Assembly: GCA_000004985.1 (NCBI GenBank)
Contig: GG738883.1
Direction: 5' to 3' (one strand)
DNA from: Naegleria gruberi
Lineage: Eukaryota
Length of the DNA: 64,000 bases
Positions within the stretch are counted from its first letter, which is position 1, and each line of letters begins with the position of its first letter. The notes beneath the pieces were generated by a model. It saw nothing but the letters and a program-made list of their open reading frames with translations, did no database searches and was not told the DNA's origin. A program made the translations under genes and the position numbers. Positions 772 to 64,000 of this stretch are shown piece by piece.

Positions 772-3177
772 ATGTTAACAGACTTTGAAATCAATGATGA
801 GAATAATCATCAGGACGATCAGGGCTATGATGAAATTATTGGAGGAGAAGATCATCATGTTCGTAATAGTAACGAAACAAAATTTGATAATTTACCGGAG
901 GAAGTAATTGCAAATATTTGTTCATGTTTTATGAGAAATTCAACAACAAATTTAGCAGAAAGAAAAGGACAACAGGATTTTTCTGAAAATTCATTGTTTG
1001 AGTATGAAGATTTTCATACTGTCAATATTGATGATTTAATAGATATTTATCCATTATCGTTACTTAATAGAACTATTAGAAACAAAATTTTAAATAATAA
1101 TCATTTGTGGAATGAACAAATGATTGTTGATCTGAGTGAATTTTCAAAATCAACCAAATTATTTAAATATATGAATAAGATTAATGATTGGAATTATAGT
1201 TCATCTGATGATGATCTAATTGTAACAGTAGAAAGAGAAAGACTAAATATTGCTTTGAACTTTCTTTCATGTCTTGGTTTATCTGAATATATTAAAAAGT
1301 TAAAAGTTAGTTGCATATTGAAAGAAGTTGGGTTGAAGGAATCCATTTCATGGTCAAAACTCATTATTCACTCATTCCCTAATCTAACAGATATCATCTA
1401 TTACAGCCTCACTGATAGAAATGTTGTTAAGAGGTACGAATCCTTAGATTGTACTCAGGGAAAATGGCAAAATTTGAGCTCAATAACTGTTTATTTTGAT
1501 TTTACGTCATTATTATCTTTAATAGAAAACCACAAATCTACTATCAAGTCTATTGCTTTTTCTCCAAAAATGTCAGATAGGAAATCAACAGAAGAACTCT
1601 TAAAAAATCCCAAGATACTGGAAAATGTACAGAACATTATTATTAGTATGAAGTTTGATTCTGCAATGATGGAATCTAACAAAAATTATATGGAAAAGTT
1701 TGGTGCATTAAACATAGATTGTTCTGCTTTAGATATAGAGCGTTGGATTCCAAAACTGACACACCTTAAAAAGTTGGTGTTGGAAGGAATATACAATCCA
1801 AATTTTAAAATTGAAAACGTTAATTTCACAAATTTAACTGAGCTAGTGATATGTTTAGCTAATCAATCGGAATTAGCTTTCAACAATGTTCAAGCTCCAG
1901 AATTGCAAGAGCTTAGCATTTCTAATGCATCAATAGAAGCATCAACAGAGCCATTTAAAAATTTGCGATCATTGAAATTTCAAACTTGTAATTATGATCA
2001 AAATTTTTGGATCAAATCTCACCCTACACTCATGTACTTTAGCTTGTTTTTTCCAGAGTTTAAAGACACTATGTATAATCGCTCATTTTCATTGACTGAC
2101 AATCAAAGCTTACTTGTTATTTTACTTACCTCACTGGAATCTGTCTCTATAACTAACATCAACCCTTCTTGCAAATTATATATTGAAAAATGTCAATCAA
2201 TTCAGATTAATACTAGTAAGATATCTGAAATTTATATACAGAGCTATTCTACTGCTAGCGATATAAATATCAAAGGAGATCACTGTTCAAAACTTCATCT
2301 TCCAAAAGGTATTGAAAAATGTAAAATAGATTTGAATTCAATTAGTGAGATGAACTGTTATTATCAAGATAATTATTCTAAAATATTACCTCTTAGAGCA
2401 CATAACATTTCGTTAGAAACATTGCATATATCCTGCTTTAACATTCCTATTTTTATTAAGGAATTCTTAACATCCTTTAAATATATTGGAACTTGTAAAT
2501 GTGTTATCAGTCATGATCATACATACTCAAAAGTATACAAAAACATTAGTCCAAGCTCTAATCTTGATACTGACATGTCTAGTGTTGAGAAAATAATTAC
2601 TCATGGAGATATATCACTTCATACACATTTGACAAATAGCACCTCCTTACATACAATAATATCTGGAAGCAAATTAATCTGTTCTCCCAATACCACCTAC
2701 TTGAGCACTTCACTCACTCATTTGGAAACAAGTATTCAAAACTTTTCTTCACAATTTGACCTCCCTAATTTGAAAAATTTAATAATTTCTCATTCTGCAG
2801 ATATAGAAATTGATCTTTCTCAATATCCACATCTAGAAGATTTTTCAATTTCTCATTCTAAGAATGTAAAAATTCGAAATACATCCAAGAGTATGGAGAA
2901 AATGAAATTTTTCCTATTGGAGGGTATTAATTCTCTTTCAATCAGTATTGATAATGTACAAGCCCCAAATATCCGAGAAGCCATCATTCACTCAATCAAA
3001 AGCATTGAACCTGGTACTGAGCCAATATTCACTTTATCTCATAGCCCAAAGATGCTCTTTTACTATGTTTCATTTGTGTGGAAACCAGCTTTTAAACCAA
3101 ACCCACCTCGTACACATCAAGAAACTTTTGTAACGCCAATACCTAACGAAAACACCAGAAATTGTGAAATATTATAA
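772..3177 (+). CDS. 801-aa protein with an N-terminal F-box-like motif (LPEEVIANICSCF) followed by degenerate leucine-rich-repeat-like segments
   Basis: Single uninterrupted ORF with a true ATG at 772. F-box-like LPxEVIxxIxxxF motif near residue 40. Repeated LxxLxLxxN/C patterns. AT-rich upstream spacer 587-771 shared divergently with the preceding gene. Confidence 0.5.
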   Translation: MLTDFEINDENNHQDDQGYDEIIGGEDHHVRNSNETKFDNLPEEVIANICSCFMRNSTTNLAERKGQQDFSENSLFEYEDFHTVNIDDLIDIYPLSLLNRTIRNKILNNNHLWNEQMIVDLSEFSKSTKLFKYMNKINDWNYSSSDDDLIVTVERERLNIALNFLSCLGLSEYIKKLKVSCILKEVGLKESISWSKLIIHSFPNLTDIIYYSLTDRNVVKRYESLDCTQGKWQNLSSITVYFDFTSLLSLIENHKSTIKSIAFSPKMSDRKSTEELLKNPKILENVQNIIISMKFDSAMMESNKNYMEKFGALNIDCSALDIERWIPKLTHLKKLVLEGIYNPNFKIENVNFTNLTELVICLANQSELAFNNVQAPELQELSISNASIEASTEPFKNLRSLKFQTCNYDQNFWIKSHPTLMYFSLFFPEFKDTMYNRSFSLTDNQSLLVILLTSLESVSITNINPSCKLYIEKCQSIQINTSKISEIYIQSYSTASDINIKGDHCSKLHLPKGIEKCKIDLNSISEMNCYYQDNYSKILPLRAHNISLETLHISCFNIPIFIKEFLTSFKYIGTCKCVISHDHTYSKVYKNISPSSNLDTDMSSVEKIITHGDISLHTHLTNSTSLHTIISGSKLICSPNTTYLSTSLTHLETSIQNFSSQFDLPNLKNLIISHSADIEIDLSQYPHLEDFSISHSKNVKIRNTSKSMEKMKFFLLEGINSLSISIDNVQAPNIREAIIHSIKSIEPGTEPIFTLSHSPKMLFYYVSFVWKPAFKPNPPRTHQETFVTPIPNENTRNCEIL

Positions 3178-3248
3178 CAATTTCTGGTGTGAAATATTAG
3201 AAACTTTGGATAACTTTTTTTCATTGAATCTGTGGCCAATTAATTGTG

Positions 3249-4730
3249 TTACTCCTCATTCATAGAAATTTCTAAAAACCTCGTTCCATTAAAATCTTTA
3301 ATTGTTTCAATAACAATCTTATCTATTGGATCTGATAATAGCAATACTTCTAACCCTTTCTTGGAATACTGTTCAATAAGTACTTCATTAATATTGGTTT
3401 CAATGCTTAGCAAAAAGTAAATGAATGTTTGTCCCTCCATCATTCTTGAACAATAATCCCTCAAACTCGACCACTCCGTCCTTTTGCAATTCGAGTGAAA
3501 TCTCAAAAGGTCTGTCAGAAGTAATCTATTTGAATCATCTAAAATCACTCCCATCTTGATTTTCCTTCCAAAATTTTGGTAGAAGTTCTTATAATCATCC
3601 TTATTTTCAGCAAGTCTTTCAAACATTTGCAATGTTGCCCTTGTCACACGTTTCCTTATTACTTTTAAAATTTTGTTTTCAGAAAATTGATATAAATTAA
3701 GAGGTAAATCTTCCGAATCTACCAATACTCTCATGAAATCCAAATAGTCTGGTACAATATATTTGCAATTATCCATTATAAACGTGCTTCTTATGTACAG
3801 ATGACTGACAAGCTCATAATTAAAATGGGCCACCTTTGGAATAAACAATAGTAATTTGAATTCAAGAATTCCTTCAACTCTGTAATGAGACATGGTCAAG
3901 TAATCTTCCCAATCATTTGACATTTCCTTATAGAACTGTAAATATTCACTTTTTGAAATTTTTTCAGGATCTCTTGTCCACAAGGGCTGATCTTTGTTCA
4001 AAAACTCACATTTCTGTTCATTATTTTCATCCAGAGTCTGTAGTAACACTGGATATCTAATTGGTTTGGAAAGAACAGTCAGATACATCTTGAGAAATGA
4101 ATTATCCAACAATACAAGTGAATCCTCATTCAAATATAGTGTTACTCTTGTTCCTCTTGTCAATTGTTCAGAACTTGTGTCACTTGCTACTTTGAAAACT
4201 CCATCTCCACTCGATTTCCAAATAAATTGCTCATTTCCATGCATTTTAGATGAAACCACCACTTTTTCAGCAATCATAAATGCTAAATTAAATCCAAAAC
4301 AATTTCCAAACCGTTCCATTACACTACTTTTATCACCTTGTTTCAATAATTCAACATATAATTTCACTCTCTTACTCAAAGAACCTCCTAAATTCAACAC
4401 AAGATCATTCCTTGACATTCCAAATCCTGAATCAATAATACTCAATGATTTACTCTCCAAATCAGGAATTATTTTAATGAATAGTTGAGGTTCACTCAAC
4501 AAGACAGAAGAATCCGATAGACTTGCATATTTAATTCTATCCAAAGCATCAGAAGAGTTGGAAATTAGTGATTTGAGAATAGTTTGCAAGTTATTGGAAG
4601 GAGGAATTTGTTTCAATAATTTGATTAATTCTGCAATTTCCTCTTGAAATAAGAAAGTATCTTCCGATATCTGATGATCTGAAGCCATTTTTTTAATATA
4701 TTGTAATGGATAATATTTTGTAAACAACAT
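3249..4730 (-). CDS. Hsp90-family paralog, truncated: N-terminal ATPase (GHKL) domain plus middle domain, no C-terminal dimerisation domain and no MEEVD. Probable start is the second Met (MASDHQ..., 4688)
   Basis: Strong motif-level identity to Hsp90: [16 protein letters not shown] ~ [29 protein letters not shown] ~ [22 protein letters not shown] ~ [31 protein letters not shown] ~ [43 protein letters not shown] ~ [38 protein letters not shown] ~ [15 protein letters not shown]. ORF ends ...[37 protein letters not shown], aligned to Hsp90 ~residue 540. The catalytic Glu of the LRELISNASDA motif is Ser ([11 protein letters not shown]). Confidence 0.8.
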   Translation of the reverse strand: [493 protein letters not shown]

Positions 4731-5172
4731 GCAGGAAAAATAGCGTTGGTCTGATGAAAATTAAATTGTCATCAACACAATTTCTTATGGAAAGACACCA
4801 TACAATAAAAGTAAGTTGTAGGTTCAATTACTGGTCCTAACAAGGATTTTTCTTCAGCTAAAACACTCAAAAAAATACAACAAATTCACTTCTAAAAAAA
4901 ACCTCCATCGGTACGGTTTTGGCTTTTTTCGTTCTCTTCATCACAAAGTTAAACCGTTGTTGTGTATTTTAAAAAGGCTTTGCAGAATAAGAAATAACAT
5001 CGGCCCACAACATCAACATCTTCAACAACAACAACAACAAAATTTAAAAACACAACAGGTGATAGATTTCTACCTGATACAATCTAGGCTATTAACTGAT
5101 TCATCATCAATTTGATCAAAATACTTTTCAACAATACAATTTCACGGATATGATAAAAACAAAACAATCACA

Positions 5173-6540
5173 ATGAATACTCAACTCTCCAATAATAACC
5201 AATCCTCTTCCTCTGAACCCCACGAAATTTCAACTCACAAACAAAATGATGAAGCAAACAATATTCCAGTTGACGTTGCTTCTGGTGATCCTAATTCCCA
5301 ATCATGGGTGAATTTACAACAACAGTTCATGGGAAATCCACATTACATGCCACCAAATATGACACCACAACAATACTATTATATGACTCTGTGGTTAATG
5401 CAACAAAACGGAGGCAAGGATGATCCCAATAAGAAGAAAACAGACAATCCATCAATAATAGATCCATCAGGTGCTGCTCCAAACGGAGAAGCTGAAAATC
5501 CATTAGGTATCTACCCACCACAAGTATATTTCCCATTTCCTGGCAACAATCCACCAAATAATTCACAAATTCCATCCCTAAATGTTGTTCAATCACAAGA
5601 AGACACAAACATTTCACAAGAAGCTGCAACACAAGAAAAGAAAACTAAAAGAAGAACAAAAGCCGCATCAACAACTCCTAAATCTTCAACTAAAAAACGA
5701 AAAAACACAAAGGAAGCAACAACTCCTGTTGAAGAAAGTTCTAACACACCAGATACACCAAAGAAAAAAAAGAAAAAGGAAACAACTTCTTCAAATGCAG
5801 GATCTAGTAGTAGAGGATCGAGAGGAGGACTTAGACATTTTAGTTTTAAAGTTTGCGAACTTGTTCAAAGAAAGAAAACAACTACAATTAATGATGTTGC
5901 TGATGAACTGGTTCAAGCAGAACTTCAAGATGAAGACAGTAAATCTGATGACAAGAACATTAGACGACGTGTTTATGATGCTCTCAACGTTTTAATGGCT
6001 TTAAATATTATTTCAAAAGATAAGAAAGAGATTAAGTGGAAGGGTTTACCTGTAGATTCACAAAAAGAATGTGAAGCATTGAATCAAATCAAATTACAAC
6101 GTTTAGAAATGATTCAAAAAAAAACTCAACAATTACAAGAACTTGAAAAACAACATCGATCATTATCAAGTTTATGTCAAAGAAATTCAAGCATGAATTT
6201 TGCAGAATCTAAGAGGATTGAATTACCTTTTATTATTGTTCATACATCAAAATCAACACAAATTGAATGCGAAATGGATGAAAATAGGTCTGAGGTATTT
6301 TTCAATTTCGACAAGCCTTTCGAAATTCATGATGATAATGAGATTTTATATAGGTTAAATCTAGGTTCAGATCAAAATCAATCTTCAAATCAACCAAGTG
6401 AGTCGAATAATATGAACATTTCAACATCAGGTCAAGCAGAAGATGACTTCTTTTCATTGGAACAACCCACAAACACTTCCTCTCCAAAAAAACCTTCTAA
6501 TAGCACTTCAAACAATGAAAAAGATATGGACACTCAATAA
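5173..6540 (+). CDS. tfdp: Transcription factor DP (E2F dimerisation partner, TFDP-family)
   Basis: Core DNA-binding/dimerisation region [29 protein letters not shown]...[32 protein letters not shown]...[10 protein letters not shown] is near-identical in motif content to metazoan TFDP1 ([29 protein letters not shown]...[32 protein letters not shown]). Single ORF with true ATG. Flanked by N/Q/S/T/K-rich low-complexity tails. Confidence 0.85.
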   Translation: [455 protein letters not shown]

Positions 6541-6554
6541 ACTTGTACATTTTG

Positions 6555-7970
6555 TTATTTATTGTTGCTTAGTAGATGCATTACTTCAGACAGAACTCTT
6601 CTTGTTTTTTCATTCGCCATAAAAGCCTCATTATAATCTGATTCAATTTGATTTAGTTCCATTTCTAGAGAAGCAATTAATTTCTTCTGATCTTCTATCC
6701 TTACAACAAGATCCTGCTTAGTCTTTCGTTCGGTTTCAATCTTTTTCTTAATGTCTGAAATTGAGCTTGGGGGAGAACTCGAGGGAGAAGGCTCCTTCAC
6801 TTTGTCAAATGAAAATTTGTAAAAATCCACATCTGGCCTTCTGAAAAATATCGTGTATTTGATTTCTGATTCCTCATTGAAATCCAACCAATCAACCAGA
6901 TATTTTTTGATATTGTTTCCAATTAGAATGAGTATCGATGCTCCATGCAGAGTGGAGTTTGTTTTTTGGGAGTGGGGATCAAAAATTACATGCACTATTT
7001 CTCCATATTCTTGGTCTAGAATTGAGTATATTAGCTTAGTAAATGTGTTCTGTTGGAGTAATAATATACAACTCCTTCGTTTCGTTTCCAAAACTCGATC
7101 AACCTTGGAAGAAAGACTTGTGAGCTCTCTAAGAGTAATTGCAGCTGCGGCTTGAAGATCCAATAATTTGTTTAACCTATCGTTCATTCGCAACATGTGC
7201 TCTGCATCAAGAATTCCCTGTTGGGGATCTTGAAAAGCTCCAAGTTGTAGAACGTTGTCAATCAAAGAGTTGGTAATTTTTGATGGTTCTAGCACTCTGT
7301 AAAGCAATTGTGCACCCATTTCAAGGCAAGTCGGCAGTGATGATGTACTCACCCCAAATGTTTGATAATCATTTTCACTAGCGATTAATAAACACTTCTC
7401 GATGTACTTATAATTTTTCCTATACATGGTTTCGAATTCAAATTTCTTGATTGACCTAAGTGGTGATTCCCTCTCTGTTGTTGATTGTCTCGAATATTGT
7501 TTATCATTAATTTGATTCCTATCAATTGAATAATCATATGATCCGTAAGGGCTTCCACTTTTACTATAATTTCTTGATGGATCTGAAGGAGAGAAGGATC
7601 TGGTTGGCGTTGAAAATCGAACTGAGGGTTCTCTTGGAGGAGATTTAATAAGTTCATTGCTAAGTGACCTACGCTTTGCATCCGAAGAAGATGGTTTTTG
7701 AGGAGGAGAAGCAATAGGTGAATTAAAATTTCTGAAAGGACCATCCGAAGGAAATATTGTTGAGTCTCCATATGATCTTCTGTGGGATTGTTTTGATGTT
7801 GTAGTTATCGATGAAGATACTGGAGTATATTTTGAATAAGTTAATGAGTTTGAATTTCCATAGACATGTTGTTGCTGTTGCTGATCAAAGTGATGGTCAT
7901 ACTTTGGTCGTTGAGACATTTTATTCACTTTATTTTTTTGTAGAAAGTTTGGCGGGAAATCATTCTTCAT
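6555..7970 (-). CDS. Hypothetical 471-aa protein: S/P-rich N-terminal half, globular middle region, C-terminal coiled coil
   Basis: Single long ORF with consistent codon bias. Coiled-coil heptads near the C-terminus (KKKIETERKTKQDLVVRIEDQKKLIASLEMELNQIESDYNEAF). No family recognised by eye. The stop is only 14 bp from the stop of the convergent tfdp gene. Confidence 0.45.
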   Translation of the reverse strand: MKNDFPPNFLQKNKVNKMSQRPKYDHHFDQQQQQHVYGNSNSLTYSKYTPVSSSITTTSKQSHRRSYGDSTIFPSDGPFRNFNSPIASPPQKPSSSDAKRRSLSNELIKSPPREPSVRFSTPTRSFSPSDPSRNYSKSGSPYGSYDYSIDRNQINDKQYSRQSTTERESPLRSIKKFEFETMYRKNYKYIEKCLLIASENDYQTFGVSTSSLPTCLEMGAQLLYRVLEPSKITNSLIDNVLQLGAFQDPQQGILDAEHMLRMNDRLNKLLDLQAAAAITLRELTSLSSKVDRVLETKRRSCILLLQQNTFTKLIYSILDQEYGEIVHVIFDPHSQKTNSTLHGASILILIGNNIKKYLVDWLDFNEESEIKYTIFFRRPDVDFYKFSFDKVKEPSPSSSPPSSISDIKKKIETERKTKQDLVVRIEDQKKLIASLEMELNQIESDYNEAFMANEKTRRVLSEVMHLLSNNK

Positions 7971-8083
7971 TCTTTTCTTCTAACAGAATTTAAATCTGAT
8001 GAATTTTCTTATCGCTCTCTAATCACTATTCAACTTAGCTAAAAACTAGGAAACGCGCTAGGAAGCATGCTGATAATTACCAA

Positions 8084-10036
8084 TTATTTTGATGGTTCCT
8101 TATCATCCTTCTTATCCTTCTTATCTCCTAAATCAATTTCATCATCACTACTGTGTTTAGTCGAAACTGTCCTTGCAGACATGCTATCTGATACAACCAT
8201 ATGGTTTGAATTATTTGGAGGTAAAGTCAGATTTGGAAAACTCTTTTCTCCTGCTTGTTCCTTCTTATCTTCCTTCTTTTCTTCCTCTACTCTAGCAGAG
8301 CTTTGATTGTCATTGGAATTGCTTGTAGAAGCCACACTAATATCGCTTCTTGTTTTTCCTTGAGCTGAAAGAGGTTTAATCAACTTCATGATCGATTTAA
8401 CTTTAGTTTGAACTCGGGTTTTTGTAACAGTTGTTTTTTGGTTGGCTTGGGTTCTCTTCTCAGCTTCTTCCTGAATTTTCTTTTTGGCCTCAGGGAATCT
8501 TGCAAGCACATTGTCGAAATCCTCCTTATACAAAACGAACACTTCACAAATTTCTTTTGCTCTCACAGAAGCCATTCTCTTGGAGTTGGAAATTAAGGCT
8601 ACCTCTCCAAAGAAAGAACCAGAGGTAAGAGTGGCCCAAATTTGACCTTGAGGGCCGACAATTTCAACTGTTCCTTTACCAAGGAAAAACATTTCTCTAC
8701 CAACCTCACCAAACTGCATCGCATAGTAATTTTCCAAAATGATTGTGTGGTTCAAGTAAAGACAAATTTCTTGAATGAATAATTCTTCCATATCTTTCAT
8801 GAAAGGGACTTTCTTTACAAGGTCTTTGTGCAAAAATTGAGAAACTTTTCTCTTTGTCTCAAGTTCCAAGTCTTCCAAGATATCCTCATCAGATTTTAGT
8901 TCTCTGTTAGCTCTCTGAATGATACCTAAAAAGTTACGAGAGTCAACAATTAGTTTAGTATTGACCTTTCTAAATTTCAAATAACCTGAAATGTCATCCA
9001 ATTTTCTGTTAAACTTAGAACTCTGTTGATTCATTTGGTTTACAAGATTCGACACGACACCAACAATGCCGGCAAAGAACAGTACTCCAAAAATGGCATT
9101 CAAAATGGAGTAGAGGGCACCAAGCTCATCTTGAGGGACGTCAGTTGCGAAACCCACAAGGAAGACAGTAGCAAAGTAAAAACTTCCTACATATTGCTTC
9201 ACTCTTGTAACAAAGTTATAAGAAGCAATATCAGAAGATAGGTTCATAAACACTAAGTATTTCAAATTATCTGTTGTGTCCATCTGAATTAAAATATTAC
9301 CATATTCATGATACTGATTAAGGTTCCAAAAATATAGGCATGAAAACCAGTGAATAATAACACTGAGATAAATAATAGACTTGACAATACGTAAATAGAT
9401 GGGGTTAAGCCTACTCTTCGATTCTACAGTTTGATAATAGTCACCCAATCTGAGACTAATAACAGGAATAATTCTAAACAATCTAAATGCTGGATGATTG
9501 AGTAAAAACCAATCATATAATGTACAATACGAGAGAATATCTATTAACAACAATTTCCAGTAAGAAAGCAATCTTCCAAGTCTCTTTTTTTCAGGATCTG
9601 CTCCAACCATCTTTGGCTCCAAAAGGTGAGCTATCACATTGGTGATAGCCAAAACATCCGCAACAATATTCAAAACCAAAAATCCAACATGTGTATATTC
9701 TTCAAAACAAGCAAGGTAAGGTGCAATAATAGCATTATACAAAATTACTATTGTCATAATAAAATCCAAAACTATTCTAATATTGCTGTCAGGCATGATG
9801 TAAAAGGATGTTGTTATGTTTTTTATCCTCATCGGAATAGAAACATGTTCTTTTTGACTCTCCTTATCTGCCAGTTTTACATCAACGTGACTTGATGATG
9901 CTGGAGAATCTGGTTTTACTCTTCGTTTTCCTCTCTGAAAGAATTTACTCAGGAACATTTCAGTTATTTTTTTTATAGTTACCAGTAGCATGTTTGGCGG
10001 GAAAATATGAACATTGAGATGCTCAATGATTGGCAT
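8084..10036 (-). CDS. Six-TM ion-channel-like protein with a C-terminal cyclic-nucleotide-binding domain (CNG/HCN/KAT-type architecture)
   Basis: Multiple hydrophobic TM helices, with a charged S4-like and a pore-like segment. Canonical CNBD phosphate-binding-cassette motif GKGTVEIVGPQGQIWATLTSGSFFGEVALISNSKRMASVRAKEICEVFVLYKEDF. No GYG selectivity filter seen. K/E/S-rich C-terminal tail. Confidence 0.6.
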   Translation of the reverse strand: MPIIEHLNVHIFPPNMLLVTIKKITEMFLSKFFQRGKRRVKPDSPASSSHVDVKLADKESQKEHVSIPMRIKNITTSFYIMPDSNIRIVLDFIMTIVILYNAIIAPYLACFEEYTHVGFLVLNIVADVLAITNVIAHLLEPKMVGADPEKKRLGRLLSYWKLLLIDILSYCTLYDWFLLNHPAFRLFRIIPVISLRLGDYYQTVESKSRLNPIYLRIVKSIIYLSVIIHWFSCLYFWNLNQYHEYGNILIQMDTTDNLKYLVFMNLSSDIASYNFVTRVKQYVGSFYFATVFLVGFATDVPQDELGALYSILNAIFGVLFFAGIVGVVSNLVNQMNQQSSKFNRKLDDISGYLKFRKVNTKLIVDSRNFLGIIQRANRELKSDEDILEDLELETKRKVSQFLHKDLVKKVPFMKDMEELFIQEICLYLNHTIILENYYAMQFGEVGREMFFLGKGTVEIVGPQGQIWATLTSGSFFGEVALISNSKRMASVRAKEICEVFVLYKEDFDNVLARFPEAKKKIQEEAEKRTQANQKTTVTKTRVQTKVKSIMKLIKPLSAQGKTRSDISVASTSNSNDNQSSARVEEEKKEDKKEQAGEKSFPNLTLPPNNSNHMVVSDSMSARTVSTKHSSDDEIDLGDKKDKKDDKEPSK

Positions 10037-59300: not shown

Positions 59301-62300
59301 AACTTGCATATAACCTTCTTGAACTGAATCACCTTCAATTTGTGATAATAAAAATGGTAAAGATTTTTGTAAACGTGAAACACCTTGTGCTGAAATAACT
59401 TCACATAAAGCTTGTGCTGCACCTGATCTTTCAGTTACATATTCATCACCTTGTTGAATTAATTTTTCATGTAACCATGACATGACACCTGATAAATTAT
59501 CTTCACCAACTGATTTACATAATTGACCTATAGCTTTAGCAGATGATGCACGTACTTGTGGATTTGGATCCATTAAAATATTCTTTAAAATTGGTATCAA
59601 ATCAACCATATATGGGAATAAATCTCTCTTTGGATCTAAAATTAAAGCACTAATTGATCCAATAATTTGACATGCCTTCTTTTTAATATCTGTATAACGT
59701 TCTGTTAAAGCACGTGTCAAGACTGGCATTAAAAGTGCCAATGAAGCACTATCAATAGAATGTGTAAATCTTGTAAATAATAAAGATTCTAAAACCTTAT
59801 CAATTGTTTTTTGATCTGGATTTGTTAAAGCATCTAATAATAAAGGTACTTGTTTAGAAATTTCAGGTGATCTTGATGCACCACCTACTCTTTCTAAACT
59901 TCTCTTTGATGCTTCAACAATATCTGGATGTGTTTCATTAACTGCTTCTTTCAATATTTTAATTATAGTTGGTAAATAGGAAGATAATTGTCTTGGAGCA
60001 CAATATGCCATATGACCTAATAATTTAATATTAGCTGCTTTTTGTCTCCAATTATCATTTGATGTAGGTTGAATAACAGAAGGTAATAATTGAATTACTC
60101 CATATGGTGTTAATTGTGATAAAATAGATGAAACAGCTTGTTCTGCACTTGAACGTACTTCCTTTGTTGGATCACTTAATGCATAATTTAAAATAACAGG
60201 CATTACTTCAACAATGTATGGTTCAAATGTATTTTGGAAACGATGTGAAATACATTCCAATGCTAACATACATCCTTCTTTACCTTTTTTATCTGCCTTA
60301 TTATTTGTTAAATATTGATTCATTGGTGAAATACCATATTGATATAAATCTAATAATCCACATCCATATAAAACACCTGCTAATCCCCATGCAAATCCAC
60401 GTTTAACACCATAATTATTTGGAATATTCTTTCCATTTGATAATGTTGTTGTACCATATAATAAAAATGATAATAATCTCTTATTAATTAAATCATTATG
60501 AATATAATCTTGTTCCTTTTCATAAATATTTTGAATTAAAGGTGATAATGCTTCACTAATTGATTTTTGAACTGAATTTGAAGGTATAATTAATGTATCA
60601 ATTAATTGATCAATGGCTTTTTTAATCTTTTGAATATGTGTTTGTGCATTAAAATATTTTGAAACACTTCCATACCAAACAACAACAGTTGCTGTTGCAA
60701 AATCATTTGATGTTTTTTGTAATTGATTAATATATCCATCAAATAATTCAATTAATAAATTTGCATCATGTTTACCATGATTATAAACAAGTGCTAAACC
60801 AATATTAACCATTTCATCTAATAATTCTTGATAACATGATTCTAAATTAGTTTCAATTAATCTAAAACCATCATTAACAATAAAATCAAATAATAATTTC
60901 AATTCATATTTTGTAAATGGTGAAATTTCTTGTAATAACCATGAAATTGTAATTAAAGGTTCAAAACTCTTTTCATTTTCAAGTTTTAATTGTTTTTCTT
61001 TAAATGTTTTAATAACTCTATTTAAAATAGATTGAACAAGTAAAGAATTTGAATCACCTTTTTTCATTGAAATATTTGTATCAGATCCAATTAATTCTTT
61101 TAATGCACCTGTTATAGTTAAACATGAATTATTTCTAGAATAATAAGAATCATATTTAGTTTCACATGTAATTAAAGGAATTGATTTTTCAATAACTTGA
61201 TTTAAATTTGATTTAAATTGTTCTTTTTGAATGAATGGTTTTGATAAAACTTTACATTCTTCACTTGTATCAAATTGTGAATAATATAAAATAAATTTAA
61301 TATCATCCAATGTATTTAATGATAACTTTTTCAAATCACCCTTTGTTAAATATTGACAAAGTGTTTTTAAACAATATAATCTAACATTTTCCATTTCAGA
61401 ATACATAATAGAATGTATCATTGATTTAAATTCATCAATTAAATAAGGTGACATTGACATCATTGAATTAAATCCTTGCTTATTTAAATGTGGAATAAAA
61501 GGTAAAACTTCATTAACACAAATTTCCATTACCTTATTTCTAATAAGACTTGTTAAATCTGATTTACCTGCATGTGCTGATAAAATACTCATACATGTTG
61601 TTAATGAAGATGATTCAAAACGATGTTCTGGTTTAGAAATAATTGATTGTCTATTTAAAATAGATTCTAATAATGGTAATAAACATGTAAATTCTTCAGA
61701 TTCTAACATGTTTGGAAATTGTAATCTAATTTTATGAATAATATAATCTCCAAATGTTACATTATTATCATGTGTTGGAATATAACGTGTTAATTTATCT
61801 TCATATTCTCCACTTTCATTATTAAACATATTTTTAATACGGAATGTTGCAATTGCTAACATTTCTGCAATACATTCATTTGAAACTGTATTCTTTCTTC
61901 TACTTGTTGTTTTAGGTTGTGAATCATTAGCAAAATCTAAATGTACCAATGTATTTCTATTAACATTCTTTAATATATTAAATGCTTGTGATGAAATTGG
62001 TGCAAAATATTTATATTTATCTAATAAACTTGTTACATTAAATAATAATAATGACCAAGCAAATTTAATATAATGTGTACGAATATGATGTTCTTCAACT
62101 TTATCATTTGATGTATTAGAAGTAGTAGTATTAGAAGTAGTAGTATTAGATGAAGTAGTATTAGAAGAAGTAGTATTAGATGTAATATGAGAATGTTCTG
62201 AAATATTACTAATAGATGTATTATCATCATCTAATGAACTTGTTGTAATAATATCAATTGAAACTTTATCACCATTTGTTAAAAGAGTAATATCATTAAT

Positions 62301-64000
62301 TAAAGATAATAAATGTTGAATCTTATCAACTTGTTTTTGAATAGATTGTTTAACAATATTTTCCTTTTTTAACATATTTTCTTTAACAAATTGTTTTCTA
62401 GATTCTTGTAAATTCTTTTTAATAGTCTTTTCCTTATTTTGAATAACTTCCCATTCTTTATCAGTTAAATGATATCTATAATATTTAATAGTTTCCTTTT
62501 CATTCATAAATGGAATAGAATTAGATTGTCTAAAAATAGGATGTTTGTTAACTTCAGTATCTAAATCATGATATGGTTCTTCTAAATTATTTCTATTATA
62601 AACAATAAAATCAGTTAAATTATAATCATCACTTTCAAATAATAAATAATAATGTGAATGTAATTCTTTAGAAATTAATTCAAAAATTCTTGTTGAATGT
62701 TTAGAATGTTTAAATAAAATTAATGAAATAATTGAATATGAAATTGCCTTTCTATTAAATGTTGAATTATTTACCAATTCATTTAATAAATAAATTGTCA
62801 TTTCTTCATATTTATGTGAAATTGTATTATTTAAAATATATTGTTTATATTTTTCATTATGTACTAATGAATGAATATTATCAACAATTAATGGATGATG
62901 CATTAATATAAATAATTTATAAATACTTGTTTTATCTTGACATTTAATATTTAAACAATCTCTAAATGTTTCAATAGCAAATCTTAATGAACTATGTGTA
63001 TATAATTTGTTATTATTTGTAGTAATATTAGATGTAGTAGTATTAGTAGTAGATGTAGTAGTATTAAAATCATCATCTTGTAATTTCTTTTTATTAAATT
63101 CATTTTCCAATTCAATAATAAAAGATTGACTAAATGAATCTAATAAAATTTGTTCAATAATGAAATTATCACTTGTATTATTATTGTAATAATTGATCAT
63201 TGATTTTGATAAAATTTCTTGTGCTTGATGATTTTCTTTACAATTACTTAATGCAATACAACATGCTAAATATAAATCAGATTTAATTGCATTTGAAATA
63301 TTTGAATTAATAATTTTTTGTAATTTAATTGAATTTTCTGATTGATTATTAAATAAAATATTTGAAATTAAATAAGAAAGTGCAATAAAATCCTTTGAAT
63401 TTAATAATTCAATAGTTTCCTTATTAAAAATAAAAGTTAAAATTTTTTTAGTATTTTGTTGTAATAATTTAACAATAGATTCCTTATTTTGTACTAAAAT
63501 AGAATGTGTTAAAATTTCAAAACAATAAATTGCAAGTGATCTTAATGATTTCTTCTTTTCTGAATTTAAAATTGTTTCAATTAAAAAATTTTCTAAATTT
63601 GAATCTAATTGATCAATTGCAAAATGTGAAATGAATGAAATAATTGATTTTTTAACTTGATTAATTTCTTCACTTTCTAATTTAAATATTTTTGTTAAAT
63701 TTTCAAAATTTTCAAGTTTTTTAACATTTAATAATTCTAAAATATTAAATAAATAAATAAATGTTTGTGCTAATTCTGATGTAATTGTTGTTGTTGATAA
63801 ATATTTAAAAATAAAATTAATAAATGTTTCTAAATTTGATAATTCTAATTTAAATTCATTAAATTCTTTATCAAAAATTGATGAATTTTTAACTTTTTTT
63901 AAATATAAATAAATTGATTCAAATAAAAATTGTAAAGTTTTTGTATCTAAAAATGTAAATTCACTACTATTAATAAATAATTTATCATTTTTAATATTAG
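56361..64000 (-). CDS. gcn1: GCN1 (eIF2-alpha kinase GCN2 activator; HEAT-repeat ribosome-binding protein), partial: C-terminal ~2,545 aa in the window, N-terminus beyond the 3' edge
   Basis: 2279-aa track ORF. The same frame stays open upstream of the annotated Met (63200) for at least 180 nt that I translated (...ETIELLNSKDFIALSYLISNILFNNQSENSIKLQKIINSNISNAIKSDLYLACCIALSNCKENHQAQEILSKS-MINYY...). Protein is HEAT/ARM-repeat throughout. The region containing ...RILDPKRDLFPYMVDLIPILKNILMDPNPQVRASSAKAIGQL... and ...LLSTHSSSNGLLTDTQLRTLGDVCESV... is characteristic of the GCN1 eEF3-like HEAT block. Ends with acidic tail ...EDSDLEAEEEEEERFYE. Confidence 0.85.
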   Translation of the reverse strand, partial: NIKNDKLFINSSEFTFLDTKTLQFLFESIYLYLKKVKNSSIFDKEFNEFKLELSNLETFINFIFKYLSTTTITSELAQTFIYLFNILELLNVKKLENFENLTKIFKLESEEINQVKKSIISFISHFAIDQLDSNLENFLIETILNSEKKKSLRSLAIYCFEILTHSILVQNKESIVKLLQQNTKKILTFIFNKETIELLNSKDFIALSYLISNILFNNQSENSIKLQKIINSNISNAIKSDLYLACCIALSNCKENHQAQEILSKSMINYYNNNTSDNFIIEQILLDSFSQSFIIELENEFNKKKLQDDDFNTTTSTTNTTTSNITTNNNKLYTHSSLRFAIETFRDCLNIKCQDKTSIYKLFILMHHPLIVDNIHSLVHNEKYKQYILNNTISHKYEEMTIYLLNELVNNSTFNRKAISYSIISLILFKHSKHSTRIFELISKELHSHYYLLFESDDYNLTDFIVYNRNNLEEPYHDLDTEVNKHPIFRQSNSIPFMNEKETIKYYRYHLTDKEWEVIQNKEKTIKKNLQESRKQFVKENMLKKENIVKQSIQKQVDKIQHLLSLINDITLLTNGDKVSIDIITTSSLDDDNTSISNISEHSHITSNTTSSNTTSSNTTTSNTTTSNTSNDKVEEHHIRTHYIKFAWSLLLFNVTSLLDKYKYFAPISSQAFNILKNVNRNTLVHLDFANDSQPKTTSRRKNTVSNECIAEMLAIATFRIKNMFNNESGEYEDKLTRYIPTHDNNVTFGDYIIHKIRLQFPNMLESEEFTCLLPLLESILNRQSIISKPEHRFESSSLTTCMSILSAHAGKSDLTSLIRNKVMEICVNEVLPFIPHLNKQGFNSMMSMSPYLIDEFKSMIHSIMYSEMENVRLYCLKTLCQYLTKGDLKKLSLNTLDDIKFILYYSQFDTSEECKVLSKPFIQKEQFKSNLNQVIEKSIPLITCETKYDSYYSRNNSCLTITGALKELIGSDTNISMKKGDSNSLLVQSILNRVIKTFKEKQLKLENEKSFEPLITISWLLQEISPFTKYELKLLFDFIVNDGFRLIETNLESCYQELLDEMVNIGLALVYNHGKHDANLLIELFDGYINQLQKTSNDFATATVVVWYGSVSKYFNAQTHIQKIKKAIDQLIDTLIIPSNSVQKSISEALSPLIQNIYEKEQDYIHNDLINKRLLSFLLYGTTTLSNGKNIPNNYGVKRGFAWGLAGVLYGCGLLDLYQYGISPMNQYLTNNKADKKGKEGCMLALECISHRFQNTFEPYIVEVMPVILNYALSDPTKEVRSSAEQAVSSILSQLTPYGVIQLLPSVIQPTSNDNWRQKAANIKLLGHMAYCAPRQLSSYLPTIIKILKEAVNETHPDIVEASKRSLERVGGASRSPEISKQVPLLLDALTNPDQKTIDKVLESLLFTRFTHSIDSASLALLMPVLTRALTERYTDIKKKACQIIGSISALILDPKRDLFPYMVDLIPILKNILMDPNPQVRASSAKAIGQLCKSVGEDNLSGVMSWLHEKLIQQGDEYVTERSGAAQALCEVISAQGVSRLQKSLPFLLSQIEGDSVQEGYMQVFVYLPALMKSQFEPFLEMCLPRILKALSHSKEGIRETSLQSSRVIVELFTDSAMNILVPALREGLESEEWRTRYNCLILLTDLLTRMTTLYGNSDEMSHLDENPIQLTVIERVLSLELVSHIIALTFIAIQDINLKSIANKLWKDMIANTPSTLKNHLTCITDCILKHLNMSEDQRFIAGKALGELVVKLGERVVGELIPMLHQQLLDIDSNPEKRQGVILGVTELMLAASDKHLQTYSIKLIQIVKRGICDDDSTVRDAASSAFDVLCRVMGDRCVKEIVQQLLQDLEKTTNEKLVEIAASGMQQLVRVRPQNVLPKLIPALLSTHSSSNGLLTDTQLRTLGDVCESVYENDHLDEMTEFILPMIEKLVTQLSISPYIDSVTNVADESILILRTITKVLECLNIQESYTIFELIKSQMTSNDIKVRRAANLFMQMMFNPSQYNEENLTEDFINDELLPIYEDLITSFNDPDDNVVKCAWYAVEKLISKCLSKEVHYNDFIQPTRENIRKLTQVSSTGELISIDLPAFNKIPKGIEPILNLYLHGLLFGKTPESRENSALGIGDLICMTSSKQLSPYVIKITGPLIRVAGDRFPWSVKAAILQTCSSLMDKGSIMLKPFLPQLQATFIKGLQDSSASILRKLSEQSIPKLIDLGCRIDSLVSALNVALKSNALSGKGSVNDFVISITRTLTSILTLACDQDKVKGVPFDQCIDTLKKTLALCDSTECANSILSKQAVQQDSDRILDITSQCLAICSRGLYLQKDNSIIDFINQTISQPDNLYVTFIVMAYWSIDKSLSSLVLDKVLSKIIEISQTIQSTPQFAKIAISLTKAATLIVISNNECAIDLLPIIKSQFEKAATSTANALRYEVAKCVKKLIKSYREKYQTEKMFDFVDSLLQIGIKDKFIPAKLCNERSLFYVLGFADNDHLRSISEYCSFKKLNPKDSKFIEDYGAKVLMKLSPEDSDLEAEEEEEERFYE

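Follow-up and report, generated by a model that had tools for sequence, protein, structure and literature searches.

What becomes of an Hsp90 gene whose product has lost the parts that drive the ATP-dependent clamp? The question is raised by an Hsp90-like gene in a 64-kb stretch of Naegleria gruberi DNA (contig GG738883.1; hereafter the window, meaning the whole stretch analysed), which is AT-rich, at ~30% GC, and has long intronless open reading frames (ORFs). The 493-residue ORF matches N. gruberi XP_002674661.1 (EFC41917.1, D2VN17, NAEGRDRAFT_44674) at 100% identity, a protein whose name in all sources is 'predicted protein' only. The original prediction, made from the sequence, described a truncated Hsp90 paralog, ATP-binding, monomeric and hydrolysis-deficient, with its catalytic glutamate replaced by serine. 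Its claims on domain content, truncation point and catalytic residues stood up to comparison with the wider family, which also brought to light the loss of the catalytic arginine, a change in the glycine-rich loop, a rewritten ATP lid, a missing charged linker and a short Src loop, and showed the protein to be very divergent overall, with no orthologue. Our preferred explanation, held with moderate confidence, is that this is a genuine gene kept by selection, a lineage-restricted cytosolic Hsp90 paralog that has turned into a pseudo-ATPase and would act by static binding through its N-terminal and middle domains.

We began from the family identity of the protein and the position of its ends (Table 1; residue numbers refer to the 479-residue annotated protein, and ORF numbering is obtained by adding 14). 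The Pfam profile HSP90 (PF00183) matched at 266.6 bits (cutoff 24.4) and covered only positions 75-340 of 518, in keeping with the N-terminal and middle-domain match first reported; the canonical N. gruberi Hsp90 scored 777 bits over the whole profile. The closest solved structure is human Hsp90-alpha (E=2e-109), with Hsp90-alpha/-beta the top matches at 370 bits, against 276 for Grp94, 266 for HtpG and 159 for TRAP1. On the HtpG NCBIfam equivalog NF003555, the paralog reached 335.5 bits, under the cutoff of 371, and canonical N. gruberi Hsp90 675.9 bits. In a neighbour-joining (NJ) tree the truncated protein falls within the cytosolic Hsp90 clade. ORF residues 23-242 align with human Hsp90-alpha 17-232 and ORF residues 242-488 with human 288-544, close to the predicted truncation near Hsp90 residue 540. 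The protein ends in ISMNEE, aligned opposite canonical VTKEGL (KEFEGKKLVCVTKEGL), at the boundary between the middle and C-terminal domains; the C-terminal dimerisation domain, the MEEVD terminus and the charged linker are all missing. By alignment and tree position, it is a derivative of a cytosolic (Hsp90A-type) Hsp90 that comprises the N-terminal and middle domains only. Its AlphaFold2 model (39 homologues) has the Hsp90 N-terminal plus middle-domain (N+M) fold with a mean predicted local distance difference test (pLDDT) score of 75, with confident modelling of the N-domain and of the distal part of the middle domain, and the top Foldseek matches of the model are full-length Hsp90 structures (E ~1e-42).

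The surrounding DNA bears out the truncation. When the full canonical N. gruberi Hsp90 was compared with the window by tblastn, it gave one uninterrupted high-scoring segment pair, in which residues 5-521 match window positions 4661-3264 at 40% identity, an alignment of ~1.4 kb free of frameshifts. A separate search with the canonical C-terminal 187 residues against both strands of the 64 kb found no C-domain (best E=0.24). The gap to the convergent neighbouring gene, put at ~70 bp in the original prediction, measures 71 bp and has no space for a C-domain exon.

ATP hydrolysis by Hsp90 requires Glu33 (yeast numbering) as general base and contact between the middle-domain Arg380 and the gamma-phosphate; the lid must also close, and the N-terminal domains must dimerise, a step that constitutive dimerisation through the C-terminal domains makes efficient. 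Hsp90 N+M fragments are monomeric and have very low activity, and yeast E33A binds ATP and does not hydrolyse it. Against 112 full-length cytosolic Hsp90s and 269 Hsp90-family proteins, the paralog departs from the family at each of the hallmark catalytic residues. The catalytic Glu column (yeast E33, human E47) holds Glu in 259 of the 269 proteins and Ser in only 2; the family alignment puts no Glu at this site in the paralog, where Ser40 stands as had been proposed. The middle-domain catalytic Arg (yeast R380, human R400; LPLNISRE) is Gln334 (codon 3687-3689), within a shortened catalytic loop in which canonical LNISRE has become LNLYQ-. Arg fills this column in 261 of the 269 relatives, and the sole Gln is that of the truncated paralog. 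Judged on these alignments, the rarity of the Glu-to-Ser and Arg-to-Gln changes is far beyond chance similarity, and the loss of the Arg strengthens the earlier prediction of hydrolysis deficiency. As all four requirements of the ATPase are lacking, the paralog is strongly predicted to be hydrolysis-dead and unable to cycle. The absent C-domain indicates that it is probably monomeric.

Whether the N-domain would still bind nucleotide is uncertain, with the base of the adenine pocket intact and the phosphate-contacting loop and lid not. Asn44, Asp47, Asp86 (the ATP-contact Asp correctly described as retained), Gly88, Gly90, Met91, Asn99 and Thr180 are all kept, including the equivalents of human Gly95/Gly97 and Thr184. 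The canonical lid, GTIA(K/R)SGTKxFMEALQAGAD, is heavily rewritten, with K112/S113/G114/T115 (human numbering) changed to S/K/R/V, and in the GxxGxG loop the first Gly is Glu125 and a two-residue Asn-Cys insertion follows. The Pfam profile HATPase_c scored 20.7 bits in the paralog, under its threshold of 26.4, against 29.5 bits in the canonical N. gruberi copy; HATPase_c_3 was undetected in the paralog, unlike in the canonical copy.

These changes sit on a background of very high divergence that is unevenly spread. Over the same columns, the paralog is 44-46% identical to the canonical Hsp90s of Naegleria, plant, insect and fungus, which are 70-88% identical among themselves, and it retains 146 of the 263 positions that are invariant (>=97%) in cytosolic Hsp90s. 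Retention of invariant positions is poorest at residues 21-40 (5/17), the N-terminal helix in which the catalytic Glu lies and which contributes to the N-dimer interface, and at residues 101-120 (4/15) and 121-140 (6/14). The most rewritten segments are the lid and the glycine-rich loop, the drivers of lid closure and N-terminal dimerisation. The hydrophobic core survives, as do the adenine-pocket base (Asn, DxGxG, Thr) and a large part of the middle domain. The best-kept segment, residues 241-260 ending in NDW, has all nine of its invariant positions, and the helix with the Asn (11/14), DxGxG (8/11), DSEDLPLN and the NKILKVIRK helix are also well kept; the last of these follows the dead catalytic loop and is preserved, as is the NDWED segment. 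Agreement with the consensus climbs with canonical conservation (26%, 36% and then 59%), and invariant positions are kept most often when they are Gly/Pro (72%) or hydrophobic (62%) and less often when charged (49%) or polar (43%), a bias to be expected from selection on the fold.

To gauge how such a frame would fare by neutral decay, the canonical N+M region was back-translated with local codon usage and mutated with the base composition of the window, by substitution only, down to 42% amino-acid identity in 300 runs. On average the simulated sequences acquired 25 in-frame stops, never fewer than 12, and the frame stayed open in 0/300 runs; because the simulation ignores indels, the test is conservative. 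With ~25 stops predicted under neutral decay, the open frame argues for maintenance by selection. We conclude that selection has acted on the reading frame and the fold, and not on the coupling of ATP to lid closure, N-terminal dimerisation and hydrolysis.

Table 1. Coordinates of the Hsp90-like gene, its domains and altered sites, and its convergent neighbour in the window.
Feature	Position	Strand	Remarks
Hsp90-like maximal ORF	3249..4730	-	493 aa
Annotated coding sequence	3249..4688	-	Starts at Met15 of ORF; 479 aa; XP_002674661.1
N-terminal GHKL-type domain	4044..4688	-	Residues 1-215; human 17-232; AlphaFold2 pLDDT mostly 80-94
Ser40 codon TCA at catalytic Glu position (yeast E33 / human E47)	4569..4571	-	Alignment
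Asn44 codon, retained Mg/ATP-coordinating Asn (human N51)	4557..4559	-	Alignment
Asp86 codon, retained adenine-contact Asp of DxGxG (human D93; DSGFGMS)	4431..4433	-	Alignment
Degenerate ATP lid	4329..4388	-	Residues 101-120; canonical GTIARSGTKEFMEALQAGAD; invariant positions kept 4/15
Altered glycine-rich loop	4290..4316	-	Residues 125-133; ERFGNCFGF vs GQFG--VGF
Short N-M connector, ~14 residues	4002..4043	-	Replaces ~50-60-residue charged linker of cytosolic Hsp90
Middle domain	3264..4001	-	Residues 230-475; human 288-544; distal part confident, residues 250-340 pLDDT 30-57
Shortened Src / amphipathic loop	3798..3833	-	Canonical RAPFDLFEPKKKLNNIKL; 4-6 residue deletion
Catalytic loop of middle domain	3678..3707	-	1-2 residue deletion
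Stop codon TAA	3249..3251	-	At middle/C-terminal domain boundary
Intergenic gap, 71 bp	3178..3248	.	To stop of convergent 801-aa LRR-like gene
Convergent leucine-rich-repeat (LRR)-like gene, 801 aa	772..3177	+	ORF list

A canonical Hsp90 of 707 residues, ending in MEDVD, is encoded on another scaffold of the same genome (P0068, XP_002672583.1); the truncated gene is therefore an extra paralog, as had been proposed. N. fowleri and Willaertia have one canonical Hsp90 each. No orthologue of the paralog was found in a word-indexed search of 5.8 billion sequences or in an exhaustive search of 1.84 billion representatives: nothing exceeded 47% identity, and neither collection held anything closer to the paralog than ordinary Hsp90s. 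One candidate truncated twin (P0121; 477 aa, 44%) proved instead to be a fragmentary model, without linker, of a canonical Hsp90 of metazoan type in which both Glu and Arg are present. The NJ neighbours of the paralog are other long-branch, linker-less paralogs, the metagenomic P0170 (52% bootstrap) and P0124 (19%). P0170, which also has Ser for the catalytic Glu, was set aside as a relative after only 20% of derived residues proved to be shared, a level also seen in unrelated divergent pairs, and we read the pairing as long-branch attraction combined with convergence.

Synteny with N. lovaniensis PYSW02000024.1 is kept on both sides of the Hsp90-like gene, through the LRR-like gene on one side and a DP transcription factor, a 471-residue protein, a cyclic nucleotide (cNMP)-gated channel and an Ank/PARP protein on the other, and is locally broken where window positions 772-6540 are set against N. 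lovaniensis 4659-11464. The interval between the LRR-like and DP genes holds the Hsp90-like gene in N. gruberi and, in N. lovaniensis, genes for a PAS-guanylate cyclase and a Tyr phosphatase; neither of the two N. lovaniensis proteins has a tblastn match (E <= 1e-3) in the window, and no Hsp90 remnant was detectable at the syntenic N. lovaniensis locus. In a check for descent from the canonical Naegleria gene, made at 12 positions with heterolobosean-specific states, the paralog shares only 2 and shows the general eukaryotic state at 5. From these sequence comparisons, it may be a young duplicate evolving very fast, an old duplicate since lost from other lineages, or a gene of foreign origin. 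Codon-position GC content is similar to that of neighbouring genes, and around the gene there are no flanking direct repeats and no poly-A tract of note as signatures of retroposition or a mobile element.

The paralog most likely originated in a partial, 3'-truncated duplication of Hsp90, after which constraint on the catalytic cycle would have relaxed and the sequence diverged rapidly. Its product would be a monomer unable to run the ATP-driven clamp cycle, so that any action would have to be by static binding, as an ATP-independent holdase or adaptor, or as a competitor for proteins that bind Hsp90 at its N/M surfaces. Candidate partners, named speculatively, would be of the Aha1 type or a subset of clients. 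Aha1-type partners are considered because the helix equivalent to yeast K387-K394, a contact of such partners, is intact, along with the NDWED segment. Spelled out in full, the proposal that a selected monomeric pseudo-Hsp90 regulates the canonical Hsp90 system through static occupation of N/M partners (Aha1-type, CS/CHORD-type or clients), or serves as an ATP-independent holdase, strikes us as rather unlikely; if true, it would represent a new class of chaperone-derived pseudoenzyme. Several points count against a maintained, statically binding paralog. Evidence of transcription or translation of the gene was sought and none obtained. A dN/dS measure of purifying selection is precluded because there is no orthologue. 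The change of 40% of canonical-invariant positions is also what a gene heading to loss looks like. Canonical Hsp90 uses the Src loop for clients, and its shortening here may compromise client binding. Modelling is poor, at pLDDT 30-57, over residues 250-340, the proximal part of the middle domain in which the catalytic and Src loops lie. Finally, the suggestion of Aha1 competition or holdase activity draws only on one retained helix, which has a structural role as well. In line with the first of these points, exact-protein look-ups returned no contigs, and the accessions of the gene are not mentioned in the searchable literature, nor is the gene in the Naegleria supplements examined. The HSP90 quantitative PCR primers of PMC10555999, considered as possible expression evidence, target another gene (XM_002682845) and have no match in the window.

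The same facts could be read as those of a non-functional relic, a decaying partial Hsp90 duplicate that is open by luck or lost its constraint recently. We consider this unlikely. A relic would suit a singleton without orthologue in the 5.8- and 1.8-billion-sequence collections, absent from the syntenic N. lovaniensis locus and changed at all hallmark catalytic residues and at 40% of invariant positions, and truncated Hsp90 copies of Trichomonas, seen as possible pseudogenes, provide a precedent (PMC5973626). It would not, however, account for an open frame where ~25 stops are expected and none of the 300 simulations stayed open, for 1.4 kb of alignment without a frameshift, or for changes that spare the core, Gly/Pro and most conserved positions; the cut also falls exactly at a domain boundary and nothing C-domain-like lies past the stop, unlike in the Trichomonas copies. 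It is very improbable that the C-domain is supplied from elsewhere, by a distant exon or by a split, trans-spliced gene such as HspN/HspC of Giardia (PMC4006730, PMC8494341). A GT dinucleotide does overlap the stop codon (GA|GTAAC) and the window holds only 3.2 kb downstream, but neither strand of the 64 kb has C-domain similarity, the 71-bp gap is followed by the 801-residue convergent gene, whose orthologue is adjacent in N. lovaniensis too, the public gene model has the same stop, and a complete canonical Hsp90 is already present; the catalytic residues would moreover still be missing. The preferred reading of a maintained pseudo-ATPase also has a sub-variant in which the N-domain binds ATP/ADP tightly and the protein is a nucleotide-bound, hydrolysis-dead decoy resembling E33A, in the sense of the original prediction. 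The adenine-pocket residues listed above, Asn44 to Thr180, are retained, no other segments of the N-domain are as well conserved as theirs (11/14 and 8/11 invariant positions) and the N-domain is modelled with high confidence, and yet this version seems doubtful given the Gly-to-Glu change and two-residue insertion in GxxGxG, the S/K/R/V lid, and a HATPase_c match under threshold with HATPase_c_3 undetected, unlike in the canonical copy; the pocket residues may have been retained for structure alone.

Comparison with known systems sets the paralog apart from each of them in some respect. With canonical cytosolic Hsp90 (HSP90AA1/AB1, Hsp82, XP_002672583.1) it shares a collinear N-terminal GHKL fold and middle domain, and the residues corresponding to N51, DxGxG, T184, NDWED and NKILKVIRK; unlike canonical Hsp90, it is without the C-terminal domain, MEEVD and charged linker, and has the Glu-to-Ser and Arg-to-Gln substitutions, Glu and an insertion in the glycine loop, a rewritten lid and a short Src loop. 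Its domain content is that of engineered N-M constructs (PDB 8u1m, NTD-MD; 2o1w, Grp94 N+M), and its Glu substitution is a lesion of the same kind as in the hydrolysis-dead E33A/E47A mutant, an E47A chain (PDB 9xj8) being the single best PDB match. In contrast to both, it is natural and has further changes in the lid, glycine loop and catalytic Arg; given how many these are, ATP trapping like that of E33A cannot be assumed.

Among natural cases, the truncated cytosolic Hsp90 ORFs of Trichomonas vaginalis arose by nonsense mutations, with the C-terminal halves recognisable downstream and annotated as separate genes (PMC5973626). They resemble the paralog as extra cytosolic-type ORFs with the N-terminal and (part of the) middle domain beside one full-length gene, whereas the paralog has nothing after the stop, is cut at the domain boundary and is far more divergent. 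Giardia encodes its only Hsp90 in two pieces, HspN and HspC, which trans-splicing joins (PMC4006730, PMC8494341). There too an ORF ends before the C-terminal part, but the Giardia halves keep the catalytic residues that the paralog has lost, N. gruberi has a full-length gene as well, and the window contains no HspC-like partner. Three further proteins are, like the paralog, cytosolic-type, without charged linker or MEEVD, and lacking the catalytic Arg; they show no specific relationship to it. P0170 (metagenomic, 613 aa) has Ser for the catalytic Glu, Asn for the Asp of DxGxG and no catalytic Arg; P0147, from the euglenid Flectonema neradi, has Pro for the Arg; and P0124, from the foraminifer Bolivina argentea, has Leu for the Arg and no C-domain. 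P0170 and P0147, unlike the paralog, retain the C-terminal region. Dead Hsp90 paralogs thus seem, by these sequences, to arise repeatedly in protists as a recurrent but unstudied outcome.

Several further observations concern the setting of the gene and the rest of the window. The 14 codons by which the ORF extends upstream of the annotated start (4689-4730, minus strand) encode a basic, hydrophobic stretch without acidic residues. At the margin of the 71-bp convergent gap, a 14-nt perfect inverted repeat (ACACCAGAAATTGT / ACAATTTCTGGTGT, with an 11-nt loop; window 3152-3190) spans the stop codon of the LRR-like gene and may be a 3'-end or termination element shared by both convergent genes. 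Elsewhere, window positions 13914-14447 (plus strand) hold tandem intron-like units of ~43-46 nt (GTAAGT...ATTAG), extremely AT-rich and spaced by only 3 nt (AAT/AGA/GAT/TAT), which interrupt an ankyrin-repeat ORF in the arrangement GHLEIVKLLLSCKTIDVNL, array, SPLYTACQNGHLEIVK. Four units lie at ~13914-14089 and six at ~14178-14447 in the next ANK repeat, giving a 263-nt higher-order repeat. If all units are spliced, runs of 3-nt micro-exons would result, and the array may be introner-like or consist of tandemly duplicated mini-introns. GC content falls to ~18% at 14001-16000 and 62001-64000, against ~30% elsewhere in the window; the former interval includes the intron-like array and a low-complexity coding repeat rich in Glu/Lys/Arg at 14611-14759.

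The practical significance of the gene is limited: it is a singleton, found in a single free-living amoeba, and degenerate or truncated Hsp90 copies turn up sporadically in other protists. If expressed, it would offer a natural experiment on the Hsp90 N+M module freed of dimerisation, lid closure and hydrolysis, and would reveal the surfaces that selection keeps when these are gone: the base of the adenine pocket, NDWED and the helix after the catalytic loop. It could then hint at what Hsp90 domains do independently of ATP, and Hsp90 would join the enzyme families that have pseudoenzyme offshoots.

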